From positions 13,333-77,332 of the forward strand of contig CAZOYD010000011.1 of assembly GCA_964583985.1 (NCBI GenBank): a stretch of 64,000 nucleotides of DNA, written 5' to 3'. Position 1 is the first letter of the stretch, and each line of letters starts with the position of its first letter. Shown here piece after piece: positions 317 to 40,809 of the stretch. The notes under the pieces are model-generated. The model was not told where the DNA came from. It ran no database searches and saw only the letters and a program-made list of their open reading frames with translations. Origin of the DNA: an uncultured archaeon. Lineage in GTDB: Archaea > Asgardarchaeota > Lokiarchaeia > Sigyniarchaeales > SOKP01. The position numbers and the translations under genes were made by a program.

Positions 317-2260
317 TTAACCTCCTTCCAATATTCCATTAATTTCAGCAAATAATTGATCATCCCGATAATATCGAATATCGATTGCTTGTGTCGGGCA
401 GCATGTTGCACAAATTCCACATCCATCGCAATTTATCTCATCCACGACAGCACCTATAGATTCAACGACTTTAATCGCTCCTTTTGGGCATTCCTTTTCA
501 CAACGGTTACATGATATGCAGAATTCCTTTGTAACTTCCGCTACAATTAATTCCAAATCTATTTCTCCAGCAGAGGTTAACTCTGCAACCTTACTTGCTG
601 CAGCTCTAGCTTGAGAAACGGAATAAGCTATATCTTTTGGTCCTTGAGCGAATCCTGCGATAAAAATCCCTTTTGTTTTCGTTTCTTGTGGCATTAATCC
701 GAAATGAGATTCTGTTAAAAAGCCGTTTTTATCAGTATCCAAATTGAGAATCTTAGCAATTTGTTGAGTTCCTTTTGATGGCAATGCTGCAGTAGAAAGA
801 ATGACTAAATCGGCGTTAATTTTAATGATTTCATCAGTTAATGATGAATACACCCGAATTTTTACATCCTTCGTCTCGGGATCTTCAGAAAATTCACCTA
901 CTTTTCCGCGAATCATGCGAATGTCAGAATTCTTAGCTCGTTGATAGTATTCTTCAAATCCCTTTTCATTCGTTCTGATATCAATATAACATATCGTGAT
1001 GTTTGCATCCGGAAACTCTTCCTTGAGTAATTTTCCATTTTTAAGCGCTAACATGCAACAAACACCTGAACAATAGGTACGCTCCGTTTCCCTACTCCCT
1101 ACGCACTGTATAAACACGATTTCTTTAGGTATCTTTCCATCCGATATTCTACTGACATGACCATCAAGAGGTCCATTTGGTGCAAGTATTCTTTCCAACT
1201 GAGCTTGTGTTATGACGTTTTCGAATTCTCCATAACCATATTCCCCGAAGGGCTCATATATGTCCCAACCAGTGGCAATGATTATCGTGCCTACTTTAAA
1301 ATTTACCTCCTCCGGAATTTGGCTGAAATCAATGGCATGCAATTCGCAAGCTTCAACACAATTGAAACATTCAACACAAGTTTCACGGTTAATATCATAA
1401 AGAAATGGGACCGCTTGTCCAAATGAAATATCTATTGTTTTCCGAGCGCCTAAATATTCATCAAAGAAATTTGTTGTGTAGGTGGGGCACATTTCTGAAC
1501 AAGCTCCGCAGCCATTACATTTTTCAGGATCGACGAATCTTGGTTTTTTCTCGACCGTTATCTCGTAATTACCCACATATCCCTCAACGCTTTTCACTTC
1601 ACTATAGCTTAAGATCTCTATGTTTTCATGGCGATTCACATCCAGCATTTTCGGTCCACAAATTCAAATGCTACAATCATCTGTTGGGAAGGTTCGGTCC
1701 AATTGTGCCATTCTTCCTCCAATAGTTGATTTTTGCTCAACCAAATAGACTTTAATTCCTTGGTTTGCTAAATCTAACGCAGCATTCATACCAGCAATGC
1801 CTCCACCAACCACCAGAGTCGCTTTTTCAACCGGCACGGTTTTGATGGGAATTACTTCTAATCGTCTTACTCGTTCAAGCCCACCCTTTATAAGAATTTG
1901 TGCCTTTTCAAGAGCGTCCTCATTATTTTCAGTACACCAACTACATTGCTCACGTACATTAACCATTTGGAAAAAATATGGGCTTAAGCTAGTCTGCTTT
2001 ATAGACCCCCGATATACTGGTTCATGAGTTCGAGGGGTTCAAGCAGAAGCGATAATTCGATCCAGCTTTTTTTCCTCGATATCTTTTATTATCTCATTTT
2101 GACCGCTTTCAGTACATAAGAATGCATGAGTCTTTGCTACGACCACGTCATCAAATTGTTTTGCGTATTCCACTAATTTATTGCAATCAACTTTACTTCG
2201 TATATTTATACCTCACTGACATGCATAGTATCCAATCCGATGCTTTTGGGTTTCTTCCAT
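317..2260 (-). CDS. hdrA: Heterodisulfide reductase subunit A (~647 aa), selenoprotein with 3 in-frame UGA
   Basis: ORFs 317-1648 and 1664-1966 and the upstream sequence are one frame from ATG 2260: RIGYYACQ-U-GINI, IIASA-U-TPRTHEP, TFPTDDCSI-U-ICGPKM (TGA at 2213-2215, 2039-2041, 1664-1666). Has the GGGIAG FAD motif, QCVGSR/YCSGVCC and ferredoxin motifs; GAGGTGA upstream. Confidence 0.95.
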
Positions 2261-2808: not shown

Positions 2809-4413
2809 ATGTGGGAGCCAAACCTTCATCCGGAAGAAATATTTCAAAAACGAGACCAATTGGGTGCGAAAAACTCCATTAAGATGCTTACTGAACTATT
2901 AGACTCCGCTAAAGAGAAATCAAAACGAATAAGTGCAATAAAATATTTAGGTTTGGTTAGTGAAGAAAATCCACAAATAAGCACGGAATGTTATGAATCT
3001 TTAGAAAATATCTTGATATCAGATGAAGCTATTGAGATTAAATGTGAAGCCGCAAAAGCTCTTGGAAAATTAAACCTTGAGAAGGCATTAAAACCATTAA
3101 ATTGGATCTTAGATCAAGAATCAACCGATCTAACTATAACTCTTGCAGTATTGGAAGCAATATCTAATATTAGATTTGAGGAGCCTGAAATCAAGCTTTT
3201 TATTAAAAATATTGCCGCGAAATATACTGATATTAAAAAATTCGCAAGAAATCAGTTACTTGATTTAATGCCCGATGTTTTGATAAAATACCTTTTAGAA
3301 TCTTTAAAAAATGAGAATTTTTCAAATGAACACAAATCTGAAATCTTTAAATTAATAGGCTATGAACTGTCCAGCATTAATATTTCGTTTGAGGATGTGA
3401 GTTATCTTAAATCCAAGTATCCAGAAGTAATAACGAATCTTATAAAACATAAAAATATTGTACTTGATGAAATAACTCGAGTTTTAAAGGAAGAAGATTC
3501 TGAATTGATGAATTCAATAATTGCAATTTTAAAATTATTAGGGGATGAGATTAAGGACGATCTCATAAAGCTTTTACTCACTGATGATTTTATTGTCAAG
3601 AAAAACGCAATTATCATAGCAGGTAGACTTGGAATAAAAGAATCCCTAGATTCGTTATTTAATAATTTAGACAGCTTATATTCTGAAGTCACTATAGCTT
3701 CTATTGAAGCATTAGGTCAAATAGGAGACATTTCCGCTGTACCTCAACTTTTAGACATTTTAAATATTGATGATGTCAGTTTTGAATATACTGATATTGA
3801 TATGAAATTTCAAATTATTGATGCCATCAAAATGATATACCTTCATAATGAAAGTGTTCCATATAACTATTTATTCACCTATTTAGAAAAAGAAAATGAT
3901 ACAATAAAGGAAAGTATTGCTTTCATACTAGGAGAACTTGGAAAAGAAGAATTTAACGAAACTTTAATTGAGTTACTCAATGAACGAAACTTGGATATTA
4001 GGAAAAATGCCATCATTGCTCTAGGAAAAATAGGACAGATAACATCATTAGAAACCTTAATATCTCTATTAAATAACGATTCAACCTATTGGTTACTCAA
4101 GAAGGTTGCTGCTGATGCGGTTTATAATATATTTCAAAAAAATTGGTTCAGATTTAAGGCTTCTAAAAATGAAGCATGGCGCAATCTAAATCAGTATTTT
4201 GCTCAATTGATTGAATACTTGAAATCTGGCGAAGACGAAGACTTCAAGGTTAAATTAAGCATGATTAAAATATTGGGAACTTTTGGAGATAAAAAAGCTA
4301 TAAACGCGTTATTATCCCGAGTGAATGATTTCCATCGAACTGTTAGGATTCATGCTTCAAATGCAATAAAACGGATTGAGGAACGACTCGAATTAGAGGA
4401 AGAAAAGCAGTGA
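2809..4413 (+). CDS. HEAT (PBS-lyase-like) repeat protein
   Basis: Repeated AA/AIxALGxIG...L..LL helical units. Confidence 0.85.
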   Translation: MWEPNLHPEEIFQKRDQLGAKNSIKMLTELLDSAKEKSKRISAIKYLGLVSEENPQISTECYESLENILISDEAIEIKCEAAKALGKLNLEKALKPLNWILDQESTDLTITLAVLEAISNIRFEEPEIKLFIKNIAAKYTDIKKFARNQLLDLMPDVLIKYLLESLKNENFSNEHKSEIFKLIGYELSSINISFEDVSYLKSKYPEVITNLIKHKNIVLDEITRVLKEEDSELMNSIIAILKLLGDEIKDDLIKLLLTDDFIVKKNAIIIAGRLGIKESLDSLFNNLDSLYSEVTIASIEALGQIGDISAVPQLLDILNIDDVSFEYTDIDMKFQIIDAIKMIYLHNESVPYNYLFTYLEKENDTIKESIAFILGELGKEEFNETLIELLNERNLDIRKNAIIALGKIGQITSLETLISLLNNDSTYWLLKKVAADAVYNIFQKNWFRFKASKNEAWRNLNQYFAQLIEYLKSGEDEDFKVKLSMIKILGTFGDKKAINALLSRVNDFHRTVRIHASNAIKRIEERLELEEEKQ

Positions 4414-9244: not shown

Positions 9245-9673
9245 TTAATCGAGTGACATTTCTGCCGGAAGTATCCATACTGGAGGTTCTCGTCTAAGAC
9301 CTTTACTTTTCAAGTATTCTAAATTTTTTTCATATTTTTTAAAAAATACTAATCCATACAAACATTTACCATGATCGATAGCATCAAGAATGGATACTAC
9401 TCCTTCGTAAAACATCTTTTCAAACTCATCTGGTGTGTAGCAGAAAGCGTCGATACCTAATCCTAAATGAATATCAAAATTTTCAAGAACGATCGAAGAA
9501 CGATTGATAAATTTATCTAGAAAATCACCAACAAAGATTATATCTATGTCACTATGAAGCGTGTAATCTTTCCGTGCTCTTGAACCAAAAAGAATAACAC
9601 ATCTTAAAGGGATTGATTTACCAACTTTATGAATTAATACGTTTAGAGCCTCTAAAATATCTTCATTGTTCAT
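9245..9673 (-). CDS. Minimal nucleotidyltransferase (MNT) of a HEPN/MNT pair
   Basis: LFGSRAR...SDIDI motif; overlaps the HEPN gene. Confidence 0.88.
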   Translation of the reverse strand: MNNEDILEALNVLIHKVGKSIPLRCVILFGSRARKDYTLHSDIDIIFVGDFLDKFINRSSIVLENFDIHLGLGIDAFCYTPDEFEKMFYEGVVSILDAIDHGKCLYGLVFFKKYEKNLEYLKSKGLRREPPVWILPAEMSLD

Positions 9674-10076
9674 TTTTTTTACCTTTTTCTATCTCCTTCT
9701 TTACGAATTGGATTAATTTATCAGCTTGCTCGATTGCAATTTCTGCTTCTTGGTTATTATATGCGTTATGAGGAGCTAAATCTGGAAGTGCATCTGGATA
9801 TCTTGTGGTTATATAGTGCTTATCTAAATTCAATGCATAATTGCTTAAATCATCGAGATCTAACTTTTTAAGTTCTTTATATTTTTCAAGTAATGTAAAG
9901 ATTGAATGCCCCCATCCATTAATGTTATTAAAGTATAATACAGCTTTTAAAGCTTTTTCTGCGGCTTGTTGTGAATGGAATACTACAGTATTATATCTCT
10001 TATTTTTAAGCAGAATTTTAGCATTTTCAAGATCCCATTCTGCTTCTTCTAGCCAATTGTTTGATTTGTTATTCAT
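9663..10076 (-). CDS. HEPN domain protein (COG2250-type)
   Basis: WLEEAEWDL, FHSQQAAEKALKA, GH, YITTRYPD. Confidence 0.88.
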   Translation of the reverse strand: MNNKSNNWLEEAEWDLENAKILLKNKRYNTVVFHSQQAAEKALKAVLYFNNINGWGHSIFTLLEKYKELKKLDLDDLSNYALNLDKHYITTRYPDALPDLAPHNAYNNQEAEIAIEQADKLIQFVKKEIEKGKKNEQ

Positions 10077-12111: not shown

Positions 12112-13602
12112 ATGACTGAAAATCAATCTGGTGAAAATAAAAAACAATATGATTATTCATTTGATTACATTCAAGGAAAGCTTGAAGGCAAGAAAGATTC
12201 ATTCGGAATGCTCATGAAAGAGATCGTTCGTGCGGGTATATGTACGGAATGCGGAACCTGCGCGGCGGTTTGTCCCGTGCTTGAATGGGATCCACTAATC
12301 GGGCAACCCAAATTGATTGGAAAATGTACAGGATGTGGGATTTGTTACAACCAATGTCCCAGAACCATAACAGATCCGATTCAACTCATGGGTGAATTTA
12401 AAACCGGTTATGTCGGAAATACAAATATTCCTGAAGTTATTGGGGGTCAAGATGGCGGAAGCATTACATCACTCTTGTGTTACTTATTTGATGAACATTT
12501 AATCGATGCTGCCGTGGTTACCATGAAGGATCCTAAGAATCCTTGGCATCCAATTGCTCAAATCATTACAACTAAAGAAGATGCAATAAAAGCTTCGGGT
12601 TCCATTTATTCTCATTCCCAAACCGTAGAAGCTTTAATGGATGCTATTAGACAAGATTATAGGTCCATAGCTTTTGTGGGTACTCCTTGTAACATCGATG
12701 CTGTTGATAAAATGATGAGCAGCCCAGCAGGTATGTTAAAATACTTCATGAGAGCTCATGTACTAAAGATTGGTCTCTTTTGCATGGATTCCTTCGCACC
12801 AGAAGCAATTTATTCCTTCTTTACCAAAGAAGGTATCGATTTAACCAAAGTAGAAAAGATGGATATCAGTAAAGGCAAGTTTCATATATATGAAAAAAAT
12901 AAAGATGAGCCCGTGAAATCATATACCATTAAGGAGCTTGATAAGTTCAAATCATCAAGCTGTAATTTTTGCACTGATTTAACTGCTGAGAATGCAGATA
13001 TTTCCGTTGGGTCCGTTGGAAGTGGTCCAAAGAAGAATACCATATTTGCTCGATCGGGAATTGGAACCGAAATTATCGAGGATGCTGCTAAAAAGGGATA
13101 TCTAACCATAGAACCCTTTAATGCCATAAACTTAAATGCGGTTCTATTCTTAGCAAAACTAAAGAAAGTTTCTCAGTACAATATCCAAAAAAGGAAAGTT
13201 TTTATCGTTAGAGATTCTGAAGAAGAACCTCGAATCAAAACTGAACCCGAGTCAGATCAAACACCAGCATCTCCAACTCTTGGAACTCGAAAAGTCTTGA
13301 GTGTATCAAAGACTTTAAATGAAGGTGAGAAAGTACTCAATATTTCTCTAACTAATAGCTTGGGTCAAGTTTTAGAAGATATAAAAATAAGGATCGTCAG
13401 TATTGAAGAATTATTTGAAAAAAGACCTTGGATTACCACGATAAAAGAATTATTTCCATATGAAACGATCGAAATTGGATATCCTCTGGAAGTTGAAGAA
13501 GGGGAAATCAAATATGAAAATGTCTTAGTTGAAGCATCTACCGATGAGTTTGGTAAGATTTTTTCGAAAACTTTTAAATTAGAACCACCAGAAAAAAAAT
13601 AA
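12112..13602 (+). CDS. FrhB/FdhB-family F420-binding subunit with N-terminal 2x[4Fe-4S] and an extra ~130-aa C-terminal region
   Basis: CTECGTCAAVCP/CTGCGICYNQCP, QDGG, VGTPC, IGLFC, CNFCTDLTAENADISVGSVGS; beta-rich tail beyond the FrhB core. Confidence 0.85.
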   Translation: MTENQSGENKKQYDYSFDYIQGKLEGKKDSFGMLMKEIVRAGICTECGTCAAVCPVLEWDPLIGQPKLIGKCTGCGICYNQCPRTITDPIQLMGEFKTGYVGNTNIPEVIGGQDGGSITSLLCYLFDEHLIDAAVVTMKDPKNPWHPIAQIITTKEDAIKASGSIYSHSQTVEALMDAIRQDYRSIAFVGTPCNIDAVDKMMSSPAGMLKYFMRAHVLKIGLFCMDSFAPEAIYSFFTKEGIDLTKVEKMDISKGKFHIYEKNKDEPVKSYTIKELDKFKSSSCNFCTDLTAENADISVGSVGSGPKKNTIFARSGIGTEIIEDAAKKGYLTIEPFNAINLNAVLFLAKLKKVSQYNIQKRKVFIVRDSEEEPRIKTEPESDQTPASPTLGTRKVLSVSKTLNEGEKVLNISLTNSLGQVLEDIKIRIVSIEELFEKRPWITTIKELFPYETIEIGYPLEVEEGEIKYENVLVEASTDEFGKIFSKTFKLEPPEKK

Positions 13603-13679
13603 TTAAAATAAATTTTATTAAAAAATTAAATGGAATAAATTATTATAAAAAGCAATAATAACAAAATAGGTGAATTAAC

Positions 13680-14588
13680 GTTAAAATATCATTAATTGGG
13701 TTAGGAGGATGCGGAAAAACCTCACTCTATTCCGTGGCTTTTGCTGAGAAAAGCCCTGAAGATACAAAGGGCTTAAGCCCTACGATCCTTTATGAAACTC
13801 GAAGACATCCCTTTTTAGGATTACAAGTAGGCATCTTTGACTTCGGTGGGCAAGAAGAATATAGGAGAGAATACATGGATAAACCGGAAATCTTTCGCGG
13901 TACAGATATCCTTATACCCATTGTGGATCTTCACGATCCAAAGAATTTTGAACAAGCTAAGGAATACATTAAAGGGATATTAGATATTTATCGAAAGAAT
14001 AACGAAAAACCAAAAATTTTCTTGTTCTTGCACAAGTATGACACGGAGAAATATCAAAAAGAATTGCTTGATACTAATGTAAAGAAGGCAAAAGATATCT
14101 TTTTAGACATGTTTAAGGAATATGATTTCAATTACATGCTTACAAGTATTTACCTACAAGACGAGCTAGCTAAAATATTTCGAGACATTCTGATATCCTC
14201 TTATTCCAATTTGAAGGCACACGTGGAAAAAGCTGAAGCACAATTAGAAGAAATAAAAGCAAAAATCATCATTTCAGATGTTTCAGGAAATGTAATTGTT
14301 CACAATGTTCAAGGTGTTAGTAGTGGATTGACATTAAGGGGAGATTTAAGAGATTTCATCAATGCATGCAATACTGTAAGAGAAAATATATTCATGTCCG
14401 ATTCTGCAAATTTTAAAGGACGCAACGAAGAAGGTAAAGAAATTGAATTGCACATTTTCAAGTACATCATCACAGTTTTAGTGATGAAATCTGGAGAAAT
14501 CGACGGAGAATCTCAGAATAAACTCAACACGTTATTAAAAGACATGAATCTATTTGCAGATCTAATTATAAGTGCTCATACGGATTAA
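13680..14588 (+). CDS. Rag/Gtr- or Arf-like small GTPase with C-terminal roadblock-like domain; non-canonical start (GTT 13680 or ATT 13674)
   Basis: The frame upstream of ORF 13734 reads (INV)KISLIGLGGCGKTS (P-loop) after an in-frame TGA. G3 DFGGQ, G4 HKYD, C-terminal IISDVSGNVI. GGTGA lies 6 nt before GTT. Confidence 0.82.
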   Translation, partial: VKISLIGLGGCGKTSLYSVAFAEKSPEDTKGLSPTILYETRRHPFLGLQVGIFDFGGQEEYRREYMDKPEIFRGTDILIPIVDLHDPKNFEQAKEYIKGILDIYRKNNEKPKIFLFLHKYDTEKYQKELLDTNVKKAKDIFLDMFKEYDFNYMLTSIYLQDELAKIFRDILISSYSNLKAHVEKAEAQLEEIKAKIIISDVSGNVIVHNVQGVSSGLTLRGDLRDFINACNTVRENIFMSDSANFKGRNEEGKEIELHIFKYIITVLVMKSGEIDGESQNKLNTLLKDMNLFADLIISAHTD

Positions 14589-35268: not shown

Positions 35269-37884
35269 TTGGAGTTCAATTGTATGGCTGAAACTGCTAC
35301 CTTGGAAATGGTTGATAACGCGAGTGATAGGATAAAACAGCTTCGCAGGAGGTATCTTGATGAAAAACCCTTTATCTCGATCGAAAGGGCTAAATTTTTC
35401 ACGGAAAAATGGAAAGAAACTGAAAACATGAATATATCTAATAATGTTCGTGTTGCTTTATCAATGAAAAATGTGTTCGAAAAAATGCATTTTAACTTTG
35501 ATCCAGATGATAGAATTGCTGGTACATGGACAGAAAATTTCTTGGGGATACCAATCGACATTGAACGGGGGTTATTTAATAGAGTATTTGAGGTGGAGCT
35601 TGATATAAAGTCAATGAAAAAATTTGCTAAGGAGAGTAATAAGGCGTTCATGGCATACATGATAAATAAATATGGTTCTGAGGGATTACTAAACATTCTG
35701 GATCATTCTAAAAAGATTGGAGTTGCCATGCCTGAATTAGGGACAGATACTTTAGATAGAAGGAAGATAAACCCTTACCAAATTAGAGAAAAAGATAAGG
35801 AATTACTACTTAAAGAATTGCTTCCTTATTGGAAGGAAAAAACAATAGCCGACAAGTTAGCAAGAGCTTTCATTGAGAATAAAATATATCCAGGAGAATT
35901 CGGAGAATTCATTCAAAATTTGCCTAGATCAACAGGTCAAGGTGATATGGTTACTTCAATTGGATCTGCTCTTGGGGTTTGGCAAGGACATCTAATCTTG
36001 AATCATGAAAAGCCAATTCAAAAAGGTCTATTATTCATGAAAAATGAAGTACAAGAATTAATCAACTCTAATAATAAATTTTCAAAATCAGAACAAGATT
36101 TTCTTGAATCCGTTAACATTGCTCTTGAAGGAGTTATGATCTTTTCGAGAAGGTTAACAGAAAAACTCGAAAATGAATTAGATAGGACTTCAGATGAATC
36201 TACAAAAGTAATACTAAGACAAATGCTTAAAACTTGTCAGAAAGTTCCGCTGTATCCTGCCGAAACATTTAGGGAAGCCGTTCAGTCATATTGGACAATA
36301 AAAACCGCTGTTGAGATTGCGATGCCATTTAATGTCCATTCACCCGGTCGTCTTGATCAAATTTTTTATCCCTTTTTTAAGAGAGATATTGATTATGGAC
36401 GAATCAGTAATGAAGAAGCTCGAGAACTTTTAGAGGAATTATTTTTAAAAATCATGAGTCACAACATGCGTCCATATTCCAATGCTTCCAGTGATTTTAG
36501 CCAACGATATGAAGGATCTGAACCAGTTACATTAGGAGGATTAACATTTAATGGGAGAGATGCAACTAATGAATTAACATATTTAATGCTTGAAGCAGCT
36601 GATCGATCTAAAGCTTCTTTAAATTTTGCGGTTCGTATTCATAAAAATAGTTCCGAAGAACTACTAATGAAAATAGCAGATTTGCATTATCATGGAGTTT
36701 CTAGCGTATCTTTAATGAACGATGAGATTTGTATTCAATCTCTATTAAATAGAGGATTTACTAAAGAAGATGCGAATGGATATGCCATTACGGGGTGTGT
36801 GGATATGTGCAGCCCAGGAAAGACGGGAGGAGAAGGATTTTCTTCGATATTATTATGTCGAACACTTGATTTAGCAATTAGAAATGGAGACTCACAAACC
36901 TTGGTCGGATTAGTAAAGAATGCAGGGCTAAAAACGGGGGATCCAGATAATTTTGCTGATTTTAATGAGTTTTTAGAAGCTTTTTTTACCCAATCTGACT
37001 TCATGATTAAAAAAATTGTTGAGGGCTCTACAATTCGCGATAAATTATTTGCTGAAATTCTCCCCGCTCCATTTATATCTGCTTTTATCGATGGATGCCT
37101 TGAGAATAAAAAGGACATTACTGAGGGAGGTGCTATTTATGATTGTGAAGGAATTCTTTTCATGACTAGTATTGCCAATTCGATTGATTCATTATATGTT
37201 ATTAAAAAATTAATCTTTGAACAAAAGAAATTCACCTTTAAAGAATTGATTAATGCAATTGATAATAATTTCAGTAATGGATATGAACACATTCATGAAT
37301 TAATCTTGGATTTAGATGGAAAATGGGGTAATGGAAATCCCGAATCAGATGAACTTGCGAGAAAAGTAACTTCTCACATGTTTAATGAGACTTACAAATA
37401 TAGAACTTATAAAGATGGATTTTACGCGCCTTTTATTAATAGCATGACAACCCATACATATGATGGAAGAATTTCCATTGCAACTCCAGATGGAAGGGTT
37501 GGAGGAAAGCCATTTGCAGCTAGTTGTAATCCGTATAACGTTGAAAAACATGGTCCTACTGGAGTATTACGCTCTGTATCAGCATTAGAATATGAACATG
37601 TGATGGGGTGTGCGGTAAATATTCGAATGCATCCATCGGGAATTGGAAAAAGCAATGAGGCCAAGAAAAAATGGATTTCATTGATAAAAACTTACTTCCA
37701 ATTAGGAGGGGAACAACTCCAACCCACTGTTGTATCCACGGATGTTTTAAAAGCAGCGCAGATTAATCCTGAAAGTTATCGCAACATAATAGTCAAAGTT
37801 GGAGGTTATAGTGCATATTTTACTGACTTGGGAAGGGAGATTCAAGACGAAATAATTTCGAGAACTGAACATACCATGGTTTAA
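35269..37884 (+). CDS. Glycyl radical enzyme (PFL2/eliminase superfamily) with atypical motifs; start probably ATG 35284
   Basis: GRLDQ, TLGG, TGCVD Cys loop, KWGN, ATPDGR, C-terminal VKVGGYSAYF Gly loop. Confidence 0.88.
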   Translation: MEFNCMAETATLEMVDNASDRIKQLRRRYLDEKPFISIERAKFFTEKWKETENMNISNNVRVALSMKNVFEKMHFNFDPDDRIAGTWTENFLGIPIDIERGLFNRVFEVELDIKSMKKFAKESNKAFMAYMINKYGSEGLLNILDHSKKIGVAMPELGTDTLDRRKINPYQIREKDKELLLKELLPYWKEKTIADKLARAFIENKIYPGEFGEFIQNLPRSTGQGDMVTSIGSALGVWQGHLILNHEKPIQKGLLFMKNEVQELINSNNKFSKSEQDFLESVNIALEGVMIFSRRLTEKLENELDRTSDESTKVILRQMLKTCQKVPLYPAETFREAVQSYWTIKTAVEIAMPFNVHSPGRLDQIFYPFFKRDIDYGRISNEEARELLEELFLKIMSHNMRPYSNASSDFSQRYEGSEPVTLGGLTFNGRDATNELTYLMLEAADRSKASLNFAVRIHKNSSEELLMKIADLHYHGVSSVSLMNDEICIQSLLNRGFTKEDANGYAITGCVDMCSPGKTGGEGFSSILLCRTLDLAIRNGDSQTLVGLVKNAGLKTGDPDNFADFNEFLEAFFTQSDFMIKKIVEGSTIRDKLFAEILPAPFISAFIDGCLENKKDITEGGAIYDCEGILFMTSIANSIDSLYVIKKLIFEQKKFTFKELINAIDNNFSNGYEHIHELILDLDGKWGNGNPESDELARKVTSHMFNETYKYRTYKDGFYAPFINSMTTHTYDGRISIATPDGRVGGKPFAASCNPYNVEKHGPTGVLRSVSALEYEHVMGCAVNIRMHPSGIGKSNEAKKKWISLIKTYFQLGGEQLQPTVVSTDVLKAAQINPESYRNIIVKVGGYSAYFTDLGREIQDEIISRTEHTMV

Positions 37885-37892
37885 AGAGTCCA

Positions 37893-38801
37893 ATGAACGG
37901 GATTATATTTGATGTTCAAAATTATGCTATTTATGACGGTCCTGGTATTAGAACAATTATTTTCTTGAAAGGGTGCCCTCTTAGTTGTCGGTGGTGCCAG
38001 AATCCTGAATCTCAAGAATTAAACCCTCAAATGTCTTATTTCGAAGAAAAATGTGTGGGTTGTGGCAAATGTGTCGCCGCTTGTCCGAGTAATGCTTTAA
38101 CCCTAATAAATGGAAAAATAAAAAGAAATTCTAATTTGTGTACTACTTGTGCAATCTGTGTAAGGGCCTGTCCTAATGGTGTCATGGAAAAAATCGGAGC
38201 AGAACGAGAAGTGGATGAACTAGTAGAGATTATATTAAGAGATAAGCCTTTTTATGATAATTCTGGCGGGGGAGTGACCATTTCAGGAGGGGAGCCTACC
38301 ATGCAAATTAATTTTCTTCTAGAACTGCTCAAGGCATTAAAACTACAAGGAATTCATACTGCAATAGAAACATGTGGATATTTTAATGAAAATTTAATTA
38401 GTGATTTAGTTAAATACGTGGATTTATTTCTATTTGATATTAAATTGATTGATACTAAAAAACATGAGCAATTTACTAACGTGAATAATGAAAAAATTCT
38501 AGCAAATTTCTCTAAAATCTTCTTTAAAGTTGGGAATGAGAGAATAATACCTCGAATACCTTTAATACCGGGAGTTAATACAGATTTACATACGATTCAA
38601 CAAATAATTAATTTTTTACACGAGATTGATTATAATGGTATAATTCATTTAATGCCATATAATAAATTAACAAAAACAAAATATGAAAAAATTGGAATGG
38701 AAGACTTGCATAAGGATTTTGGAGAATTGACTGATGGAACTCTTGAGGAAATAACACGGTTATTTCAACAGCATTCCCATGAAGTTATTATCAATCATTA
38801 A
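37893..38801 (+). CDS. Glycyl-radical activating enzyme (radical SAM plus 2x[4Fe-4S] insert)
   Basis: DGPGIRT, GCPLSCRWCQNPES, two CxxCxxCxxxC, SGGEP. Confidence 0.92.
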   Translation: MNGIIFDVQNYAIYDGPGIRTIIFLKGCPLSCRWCQNPESQELNPQMSYFEEKCVGCGKCVAACPSNALTLINGKIKRNSNLCTTCAICVRACPNGVMEKIGAEREVDELVEIILRDKPFYDNSGGGVTISGGEPTMQINFLLELLKALKLQGIHTAIETCGYFNENLISDLVKYVDLFLFDIKLIDTKKHEQFTNVNNEKILANFSKIFFKVGNERIIPRIPLIPGVNTDLHTIQQIINFLHEIDYNGIIHLMPYNKLTKTKYEKIGMEDLHKDFGELTDGTLEEITRLFQQHSHEVIINH

Positions 38802-38961: not shown

Positions 38962-40164
38962 ATGAAAATCGAGCTAAAAGATTTAAATAATGGTTCCGTG
39001 TATATTGGAGATAAATTAAATGTTAGTTCTAAGTTCATCTTTGAAGAAGATTCTTCTATTATGTGGAGTGGGCTTCAACTAATAACTAGTCCTCCGTGTT
39101 TAAAAGAATTACAGATTGCTAAAGCTGAGATTTTTTCCAAGGGAAATTTTGAATCAGGAGAATATATTCGGAATAGAACAATGCTCATTAAAAACAATGT
39201 GGTCCCGACCATAAAGAATCGCAAATTGGAATACCAGATCAAGCTTATCATGAGGCAACCTCATCCCATAAATCCAGATGAGGACATTTTCATTAATCGA
39301 ACTCAAAAAATAGAAATAAAATCAAAAAATCAAGGTATACAAACTAAAAAGTCGAATCCAATATCGTTTTCTTTGTCTGGATTAACCATTAACCTGTCAA
39401 AAGATGTTTTTAAACCAGGAGAAACAATCAAAATCAATTTTTCCGGAGAAGATCTTAAAGAAATAGAAATACGACTCTTACAAGAAGCAAACTTGATATG
39501 TTATTGCGATAGCTACGGTCAAACTTGTAGAAAAGTAGAAAAGCTTCCGCCTGCCATTGCGGGAGATGCAAAAACAGCGAACATAGAAAAAGGGTTTTTA
39601 TTCTTGAAAATTCCTGAGATCGCGGAATCCTCACATAATTACGTATGGGAAGCCCAAGAAAAGGAACAATGGGGATTTAAGTATGGAGATTATACCCGTT
39701 GGTCATTAAAAGTAATTGGTAAATCCTTGGTGAGTCGTGATAAAATGAAATTTAATATCCCAATTACCATAGTATCGAAACACGTTGATGAAGCTAAGAT
39801 CGGTGTTGATCTTTTTGCTGGGCAAAGTTCAGGAGCACCCACCTTATTTGAAGGTCTCTCATCAAAACTTCAAAAAGTATTTAAGATTGTATCAATCGAT
39901 TCAGACATTGATAAATATACAGTAAAAATCAAAAATATATCAAAAGATAAACTCAATGGTGTAACAGTTAAACTCTCAGGATTACTTGAAGGCTTATTTG
40001 AAACTCCCCCGACAATAGAAGGGTTTAATAAGTGGAATCCAGGAGAAGAAAAAGAAGTGTCATACGAAACAAAACAAAATGTCTCTAGTCTTGTCACGAT
40101 TTTAGAAGATAATCAACAGAAAAATATTAGGCTCCAGACGTCTGTTTCTGCCGATTTTTTCTGA
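38962..40164 (+). CDS. Arrestin/Vps26-like two-beta-sandwich protein with an extra C-terminal Ig-like domain
   Basis: GEY...VVPTI...LEYQIK (arrestin-N-like) and LSKDVFKPGETIKI (arrestin-C-like); pattern recognition only. Confidence 0.55.
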   Translation: MKIELKDLNNGSVYIGDKLNVSSKFIFEEDSSIMWSGLQLITSPPCLKELQIAKAEIFSKGNFESGEYIRNRTMLIKNNVVPTIKNRKLEYQIKLIMRQPHPINPDEDIFINRTQKIEIKSKNQGIQTKKSNPISFSLSGLTINLSKDVFKPGETIKINFSGEDLKEIEIRLLQEANLICYCDSYGQTCRKVEKLPPAIAGDAKTANIEKGFLFLKIPEIAESSHNYVWEAQEKEQWGFKYGDYTRWSLKVIGKSLVSRDKMKFNIPITIVSKHVDEAKIGVDLFAGQSSGAPTLFEGLSSKLQKVFKIVSIDSDIDKYTVKIKNISKDKLNGVTVKLSGLLEGLFETPPTIEGFNKWNPGEEKEVSYETKQNVSSLVTILEDNQQKNIRLQTSVSADFF

Positions 40165-40191: not shown

Positions 40192-40809
40192 TTACTTCAT
40201 TTTCATTTCTGGAAAGACTTCTGGAAACATTTCGGAATTTTTCCACATATTTAGGAAAATTAATCTTAAGATATCTTCAAAGCTACTCAATATATTCTCT
40301 CCATTAACCGCAATGGTGTGTTTTATCTCCTTATTTTTATAAGATTTGTAATGGATTTTCTTTAGGAAAACCTCAGTTCTGAATTTGTTTGCTAAATCTT
40401 GCTTATTAAACGCAATCACCAAGGGGAGATTTTCAAAATTTTCGTTAAAATATCTTTTTAACTCATTCCAAGAAACTACGTTCCGATCAAAAGCTGAAGC
40501 TTGAGAATCTGCAACAAAAATAATACCATCTACACCTTTCAAAGTTATGGGACGCGTCACAATATAGAAGTCTTGACCAGTACACGAATACAAATTAAGT
40601 TTAAGCAACCATTCTTCGTTCTGGAAAGAAATTATCCCATAATCAAAAAACAAAGTCCTCCGTACAGTACTTTCTATACTGCATAACTCTTCCTTTTTTC
40701 CAAAGTGGTTAAATAAGTTCTTGATTGATGTCGTCTTGCCAGATAAAGCAGGACCATAGTATACAATCTTGAGTTGAATTGTCTTCTCTAATGCGTCTAT
40801 TATTATAAT
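40192..40809 (-). CDS. MglA/Arf-like small GTPase; non-canonical start (ATT 40809 or a following ATA)
   Basis: The frame extends upstream of TTG 40653: IIIIDALEKTIQLKIVYYGPALSGKTTSI...RTLFFDY, TGQ, GVDGIIFVADS, NKQDL. In-frame TAA at 40819-40821, with no ATG/GTG/TTG before the P-loop. Confidence 0.85.
   Translation of the reverse strand: MIIIDALEKTIQLKIVYYGPALSGKTTSIKNLFNHFGKKEELCSIESTVRRTLFFDYGIISFQNEEWLLKLNLYSCTGQDFYIVTRPITLKGVDGIIFVADSQASAFDRNVVSWNELKRYFNENFENLPLVIAFNKQDLANKFRTEVFLKKIHYKSYKNKEIKHTIAVNGENILSSFEDILRLIFLNMWKNSEMFPEVFPEMKMK

Follow-up and report, generated by a model that had tools for sequence, protein, structure and literature searches.

The 64,000-nucleotide stretch of DNA analysed here (hereafter the window) belongs to a 3.8 Mb archaeal genome, with homologues labelled Promethearchaeota or Lokiarchaeota. 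At 12112-13602 (+ strand) it encodes a 496-residue FrhB-family Fe-S flavoprotein, FrhB-Ig, made up of a 2x[4Fe-4S] ferredoxin part, an FrhB_N/FrhB_C core, a linker and an Ig-like tail. The ferredoxin part contains two CxxCxxCxxxC motifs, identified from the sequence (12241-12360, +; residues 44-82), and the core (12439-13122, +; residues 110-337) contains QDGG, GTPC, LFC and CxxC motifs. Both PF04422 and PF04432 scored above their cut-offs, and FrhB_C ends at residue 337, after which ~150 residues follow. The best PDB matches were F420-dependent reductase modules. All twelve cluster cysteines and the flavin motifs are retained, and the hallmarks of the FrhB/FdhB family (both Pfam domains, [4Fe-4S] cysteines and FAD-binding motifs) are all present.

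FrhB-Ig shares its ferredoxin part, core, cluster cysteines and flavin motifs with the F420 modules FrhB, FpoF and Fsr-N (PF04422, PF04432), but is by curated cut-offs not a canonical FrhB or FpoF: it reached neither the frhB equivalog nor the FpoF threshold (TIGR03289, 168.9 against 331.5; NF040616, 121.6 against 475), and also stayed under those of PRK09325/6. It differs further in its additional tail and in being encoded with a GTPase, not with frhA/frhG or fpo genes. The Ig-bearing FrhB proteins form a subfamily of their own with a GSIY and PCN signature, and of the eight FrhB-like ORFs in the genome only the one at 12112-13602 has the tail. Tail-less FrhB proteins from Theionarchaea nest inside the Ig-bearing clade; these are 48-49% identical and lie on Theionarchaea/Thermococci-labelled contigs (L113-L115:4959-6014), and either transfer or tail loss is a possible origin. 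The host genome contains cofE; F420 ligase was considered as a marker of carriers and rejected, being present in 285 of 300 genomes and therefore not discriminating. The region 10-20 kb upstream of FrhB-Ig contains HdrA-like genes, an mvhD-like gene and two frhB paralogues without the tail, as seen in the window (317-1966, - strand) and in locus L083.

Directly after the FrhB gene, the sequence-only reading had placed a Rag-like GTPase. This gene was confirmed ~77 nt downstream (13680-14588, +), and encodes a 302-residue Rag/Gtr-type GTPase, as judged by PF04670 (63.9 bits, cut-off 22), PDB profiles (best named matches RagA/Gtr1, E 6e-22) and alignment. The Gtr1_RagA G-domain motifs (DxGGQ, HKxD, TSI) occur as DFGGQ, HKYD and TSIY, with the G3 glutamine intact. 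The C-terminal domain is of a size fitting a roadblock domain, and the PDB alignments reach into it, to position 206-229. Orthologues from distant lineages are 49-63% identical; the gene scored 562 bits on its own orthologue profile, on which no other GTPase of the host exceeded 90, and such genes occur once in the module and mostly once per genome.

The P-loop of this GTPase lies upstream of the listed GTG start, and the start that aligns with the orthologues is a near-cognate GTT at 13680, six bases after GGTGA (13669-13673). Near-cognate starts recur among the orthologues (window 13669-13682; L002-L030, L072), with GTT in two genomes, ATT in seven, ATA in two, and TTA and ACG, at the position where other relatives have ATG, TTG or GTG and mostly a few bases after GGTGA. 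These starts may possibly indicate low or regulated translation.

The second gene of interest (38962-40164, +) encodes a 400-residue arrestin/Vps26-like protein with an Ig-like tail, arrestin-Ig. Arrestin_C was found in 27 of 37 family members, below cut-off, Atlas feature matches (0.83-0.89) fell entirely within the arrestin clan, and the PDB profile match had an E-value of 0.06; this evidence, sub-threshold but concordant, points to a two-lobed arrestin-like fold. Relative to the arrestin clan (Arrestin_N/C, Spo0M, Vps26), with which it shares the two-lobed sequence features, arrestin-Ig differs in its sub-cut-off Pfam scores, a third, Ig-like domain and a four-cysteine site. The cysteines (46, 180, 182 and 189) are invariant in 46/46 sequences; a single one belongs to the first lobe and the other three to an insert within the second, and together they suggest a metal site. 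No Vps29 or Vps35 genes were found in the loci examined. Directly upstream of the arrestin-like gene are a glycyl-radical enzyme and its activase (35269-38801); in L089 a homologous pair adjoins the cluster, and L117 has a PFL-like gene there.

As had been read from the sequence, an MglA-like GTPase gene (40192-40806, -) converges on the arrestin-like gene. It starts apparently at an ATA near 40806, where most relatives have ATG. In the host's own family, 22 of 30 loci have this GTPase close to the arrestin gene; none of the loci examined from other families does. It was rejected as a core partner because the adjacency was seen in own-family loci only, and it is probably not a core part of the module. 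The proposed picture of two GTPases, one for each tailed protein, calls for correction: the conserved neighbour of both FrhB-Ig and arrestin-Ig is one and the same Rag-type GTPase. The 127-residue neighbour upstream of the MglA-like gene gave no roadblock (MglB) match in Pfam, and three more MglA-like paralogues (>220 bits) are encoded elsewhere in the host genome.

The tails of the two proteins (FrhB, 13288-13584, +, residues 393-491; arrestin-like, 39871-40149, +, residues 304-396) had been proposed from alignment by eye to be a common C-terminal domain. For each family, members were collected by their N-terminal parts and aligned, and the tails were then compared by HHalign. FrhB tails (n = 31) matched arrestin tails (n = 31) with 96.9% probability (E 1.7e-10, 56 columns), compared with 0.3% for a reversed control and at most 1.4% for 59 column-shuffled controls. 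The boundaries and essentially the register of the original alignment were upheld; of its residue pattern, the initial KV is not conserved over 72 tails. All sequences in the 72-tail alignment have N23 and E44, and almost all have F43 and E59. Pairwise BLASTP of the full-length proteins gave no match between the tails, nor did tblastn within the genome, and family profiles are therefore needed to detect the homology.

An AlphaFold2 model of the FrhB tail (pLDDT 93.6) is a seven-stranded β-sandwich with a long hairpin (E29-40/E43-55), at whose tip the model and the tail alignment place the conserved acidic/aromatic motif, EELFE in FrhB-Ig (13405-13419, +). Searches against solved structures gave Z-scores up to 10.8 (WxLIP, transglutaminase, GH2), with no match standing out. 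Transglutaminase C-terminal, GH2 Ig, BBS1 GAE, CARDB/DUF11 and FixG_C domains share the fold (Z 9-11, rmsd 2.3-3.1 over ~91-99 residues) at 5-15% identity to the tail, no family ranking above the rest. The C-terminal Ig region of BBS1 (Z 9.2) is among some 60 Ig folds with Z of at least 8, and Pfam GAE_BBS1 matched weakly (E 0.05) in only 2 of 72 tails. Adaptin ears are absent from the 50 best fold matches. A likeness to RhoGDI/PDE-delta/UNC119 (Foldseek E ~1e-3, TM 0.53-0.59) was set aside, standing amid many unrelated Ig folds. The suggestion of an Ig/appendage-like domain thus survives in its first half, the Ig-like sandwich; an adaptin-ear or GAE identity is not specifically supported because the fold matches are generic Ig sandwiches. 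Pfam, NCBIfam and PDB sequence searches returned no family for the tail, and no Pfam model spans the domain. As modelled, the tail is best described as an unnamed Ig-like module; its identity as an adaptin ear is not established.

In the ESM Atlas, the best three structure matches to the tail were a cluster of FrhB tails, an unnamed cluster of 344 residues and an arrestin-like cluster of 402 residues (TM 0.76 for the arrestin tail), corresponding to three families of carriers: FrhB, longin and arrestin. A profile of all tails, searched against 1.84 billion representatives, gave 133 matches: 35 longin, 18 arrestin and 9 FrhB proteins, 33 fragments, most of them short and a handful unclear or chimeric, and 38 longer proteins, almost all of which matched weakly through repeats in surface proteins. 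The three carriers are the only clear full-length architectures among these representatives.

The longin carrier was found in distant relatives as a 350-residue protein or as a 640-residue form fused to four CBS domains, and its tail is homologous to both other tails (HHalign, 99.4% and 98.1%). The survey of domain architectures suggested earlier yielded the GTPase linkage described below. It also brought up two things that the sequence-only reading had missed: a third carrier, the longin protein in its forms with and without CBS, and a CBS gene next to it. The host genome has two longin-Ig copies, on contigs C39 (3199-4260; L081) and C16 (40809-41849; L082). In the C16 copy the arginine loop described below is shortened and the tip reads FVE; downstream of the C39 copy comes a GNAT gene, an arrangement shared by L069, L071, L072 and L101. 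Pfam, NCBIfam and PDB sequence searches returned no family for the longin protein.

A model of the C39 copy (mean pLDDT 70.5) showed an N-terminal longin fold (residues 20-198), followed by a linker and the Ig domain, with no C-terminal DENN lobe. Its best structure matches were tied between the folliculin complex (6nzd_H, Z 10.6) and GATOR1 (8fw5_B, Z 10.3), both at rmsd 3.3 over 145 and 136 aligned residues; the longins of Sec22 (Z 10.1) and VAMP7 tie with these, which counts against a likeness specific to GAPs. The loop between strands E85-94 and E111-120 (β4-β5) carries R98 in 51/65 and R102 in 50/65 sequences, which may correspond in position to FLCN R164 and SMCR8 R147. Before strand 2 the protein has Gly in 63/65 and then His in 45/65 sequences (G-H), in place of the GP motif that PMC12290439 describes for eukaryotic GAP longins. 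In family f27 (L092-L100) longin-Ig genes occur in tandem, one with the arginine loop and a second, divergent one in which the loop arginines are missing, recalling catalytic/non-catalytic pairs such as FLCN/FNIP. Further Rag-like GTPase genes lie 3-6 kb from these tandems, with oxidoreductase genes on the other side.

Gene order was surveyed in loci from ten families of several Asgard lineages. FrhB-Ig adjoins the Rag GTPase in 32/33 loci and the Rag GTPase adjoins arrestin-Ig in 22/26, longin-Ig lies within 3.5 kb of FrhB-Ig in 23/25, and in 22/22 the longin gene has a small CBS gene directly beside it; the genomes are related, so these counts are not independent, and the eight own-family loci (L073-L080) were picked for closeness of FrhB-Ig and arrestin-Ig. 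The sequence-only reading had staked its proposal beforehand on conserved linkage to GTPases in other genomes, and such linkage was found, to one Rag orthologue. A GTPase neighbour alone would be weak evidence, because the host has 36 GTPase-like ORFs among ~2,900 ORFs of at least 150 residues; it is the recurrence of the same orthologue that carries weight. Typically the genes run CBS, longin-Ig, (a C25 peptidase insertion or CBS), FrhB-Ig, Rag and arrestin-Ig; SUPS01000053.1 and CP147778.1 are examples of a contiguous cluster. The window is atypical: ~24 kb of other genes separate Rag from arrestin-Ig, the widest gap among the loci. In f13 and f24 loci (L086-L090, L098, L099) the gene between longin-Ig and FrhB-Ig is a co-oriented, gingipain-like Peptidase_C25 gene, and a small TPR gene lies near the cluster in six loci (L061:316-726, L062-L064, L073, L074).

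Co-occurrence was examined in 300 genomes across the phylum using one profile for the Ig domain and one for the GTPase C-terminal domain. The Ig profile was found in families f1, f5, f6, f13, f18, f23, f24 and f27 and the GTPase domain in the same families except f18, making seven shared, one Ig-only and none GTPase-only. An Ig-profile match in f19 was a DUF58 protein and was treated as false. In f18, FrhB-Ig occurs alone. In the f27 genomes searched, arrestin-Ig was not found and the rest is kept, with two longin-Ig genes; genus g3 has neither FrhB-Ig nor arrestin but retains the GTPase, and G005 also the longin; and none of the searched f2 genomes (0/13 and 0/7) yielded the module. Named carriers include Freyarchaeia/Jordarchaeia, Helarchaeota- and Sigynarchaeota-labelled homologues, and genomes deposited as Heimdallarchaeota (e.g. 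bin6 CP070695), the last probably being Hodarchaeales. CBS, longin-Ig, FrhB-Ig, the Rag GTPase and arrestin-Ig constitute an old Asgard gene module, in which the carriers share homologous tails of Ig-like fold, restricted to three architectures, and a gene order and co-occurrence with one GTPase orthologue.

The FE tip of the hairpin is kept in 27/27 arrestin tails and in 35/36 FrhB tails outside f18 (62/63 together), and is absent from all four f18 FrhB tails, f18 being the lineage in which the GTPase was not found; the f27 longin tails keep the Phe and not the Glu. The loss in f18 is a single evolutionary event, yet it is what a docking surface would be expected to do once its partners were gone. 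Within the host's family the tail is 71% identical, compared with 87% for the FrhB core and 56% for the linker. These data bear on the idea that the domain was merely copied among neighbours in an old operon and gives stability, self-association or a common surface, with shared regulation and no complex. Such copying would suit a generic Ig fold with weak CARDB/DUF11-like relatives, and has a precedent in FixG_C, an Ig domain ending an Fe-S protein (with weak Pfam matches to the tails); it would also suit the tail-less Theionarchaea proteins within the clade and the break-up of the cluster in several lineages. We nevertheless consider it unlikely, given that the tail is better conserved than the linker, that three unrelated proteins have retained an exposed tip which is gone where partners are absent, and that distant lineages share the linkage to a single GTPase orthologue. 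A complex prediction for the three tails of one contiguous cluster (median 0.18; runs 0.00, 0.37 and 0.18; mark 0.32) is evidence neither way.

We hypothesize that the module is a Rag switch with a longin GAP, a CBS sensor, an F420-type redox module and an arrestin adaptor, joined through the shared domain; on genomic and modelled grounds we give this a probability of roughly 50%. The Ig domain would dock the three proteins, by its acidic/aromatic hairpin tip, on the Rag GTPase or on each other, and the longin would act as GAP by bringing an arginine finger of the β4-β5 loop to the site of the intact G3 glutamine of the GTPase. The FrhB part would exchange electrons between F420 and Fe-S clusters and either report the redox state or be governed by it, the CBS domains would read adenylates, and the arrestin-fold protein with its four-cysteine site would be an adaptor or output. 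The net effect would be to couple the nucleotide state of the GTPase to the redox and energy state of the cell. Tail homologies, gene order, co-occurrence, Rag motifs, longin fold, loop arginine, tip loss and redox neighbours argue for the hypothesis. Against it stand the looseness of the module (arrestin 24 kb away and longin genes on other contigs in the host, with losses in some lineages), the longin G-H in place of GP, the tie in Z with Sec22 and VAMP7, and the tip loss being one event.

The direction could also be reversed, and this is the main alternative: the GTPase and arrestin would place or switch a metabolic enzyme. FrhB-Ig would then be the subunit through which F420 electrons enter an Hdr/Mvh-type complex encoded nearby, and its tail would act as an address tag that directs where the enzyme is localised, or its assembly or turnover. 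Within ~10 kb, 25/36 loci have a second frhB, hdrA/mvhD (Hdr-type) or further oxidoreductase genes, the cofactor motifs of FrhB-Ig are intact as in working enzymes, and arrestin-fold proteins serve as cargo adaptors in eukaryotes. However, the neighbouring Hdr clusters already have their own tail-less FrhB genes, and an enzyme tag explains neither the same tail on longin and arrestin nor the fixed CBS genes. We regard this reversal as possible but tentative, well short of an even chance. The redox-enzyme neighbourhood, together with the four invariant cysteines, could also indicate metallocofactor maturation, in which the GTPase and the arrestin-like protein would deliver metal or Fe-S clusters to FrhB/Hdr. 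GTPases adjoining redox enzymes are frequently maturases, but the present one is of Rag/Gtr type and not of HypB/UreG type, the arrestin gene was not found in the searched f27 genomes, which keep the rest, and the longin and CBS parts would be left unexplained; maturation is in our view highly improbable.

The Rag-switch hypothesis invites comparison with the eukaryotic Rag/Gtr GTPases and their regulators FLCN-FNIP and GATOR1 (NPRL2-NPRL3), and with C9orf72-SMCR8 (Arf). Common to these systems and the module are a Rag-type GTPase with a roadblock-sized C-terminal domain, a longin-fold partner with a conserved loop arginine and, in one lineage, a longin pair with and without the arginine. The module differs in having one GTPase gene and no RagA/RagC pair, an Ig domain where the DENN lobe would be, and G-H for GP; the FLCN/GATOR1 complexes have no counterpart of the FrhB, CBS and arrestin proteins, and there are no Ragulator genes in the cluster. 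By analogy, the module would work like the FLCN/GATOR1 systems, but with no DENN lobe, no strict GP motif and a single Rag gene it does not belong to them. A stronger version of the hypothesis, which we consider rather unlikely, would make it an ancestral Asgard hub in which three partners dock on one Rag GTPase through a private Ig domain: FrhB as a sensor of F420 redox state, the longin as a GAP (joined in one lineage by a twin that is not catalytic) and the arrestin with its metal site, CBS supplying the adenylate input. Such a hub would be a prokaryotic, redox-and-energy-sensing forerunner of Rag/FLCN/GATOR1 signalling.

Among Asgard systems, the closest described is the operon of Liu et al. 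(bioRxiv 10.1101/2020.10.19.343400), likewise a conserved one that joins a small GTPase to a longin/DENN-type regulator. According to its main text, that operon consists of a roadblock protein, a Rab-like GTPase stated not to be Rag, and a DENN protein, whereas the GTPase here is Rag-type and the gene set is different; arrestin and CBS do not appear in that main text. No description of an Asgard FrhB/arrestin/Rag/CBS module was found in the literature covered, largely openly accessible papers, with Liu et al. covered by its main text. Tran et al. (PMC10933270) note that genome layout hampers the matching of Asgard GTPases to GAPs or GEFs. They also state that the GTPase genes of MK-D1 generally do not share operons with genes for longin or roadblock proteins. 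PMC12290439 raises the question of which GTPase is the target of the Asgard GAP-like longins. The module is real, ancient and testable: it singles out a Rag orthologue, a longin whose loop arginine is a catalytic candidate and, through the rare domain that they share with it, two more partners, and so opens the question of Asgard GTPase partners to bench experiment. FrhB-Ig, arrestin-Ig and longin-Ig can be tested as partners of this Rag GTPase, an archaeal relative of the nutrient switch of eukaryotes; if the hypothesis is true, the module would tie a eukaryote-type switch to archaeal F420 metabolism.

Elsewhere in the window, a promoter/terminator scan, of a kind not suited to archaea, gave results at chance level. 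RNA sequencing runs yielded nothing beyond short contigs from relatives, at low depth. A HEAT-repeat-like protein is encoded at 2809-4413, and its orthologue lies upstream of FrhB-Ig in the own-family loci L075, L076, L077 and L080. Nucleotidyltransferase and HEPN-like genes, recognized by eye at 9245-10076 (-), resemble an MNT-HEPN toxin-antitoxin pair.
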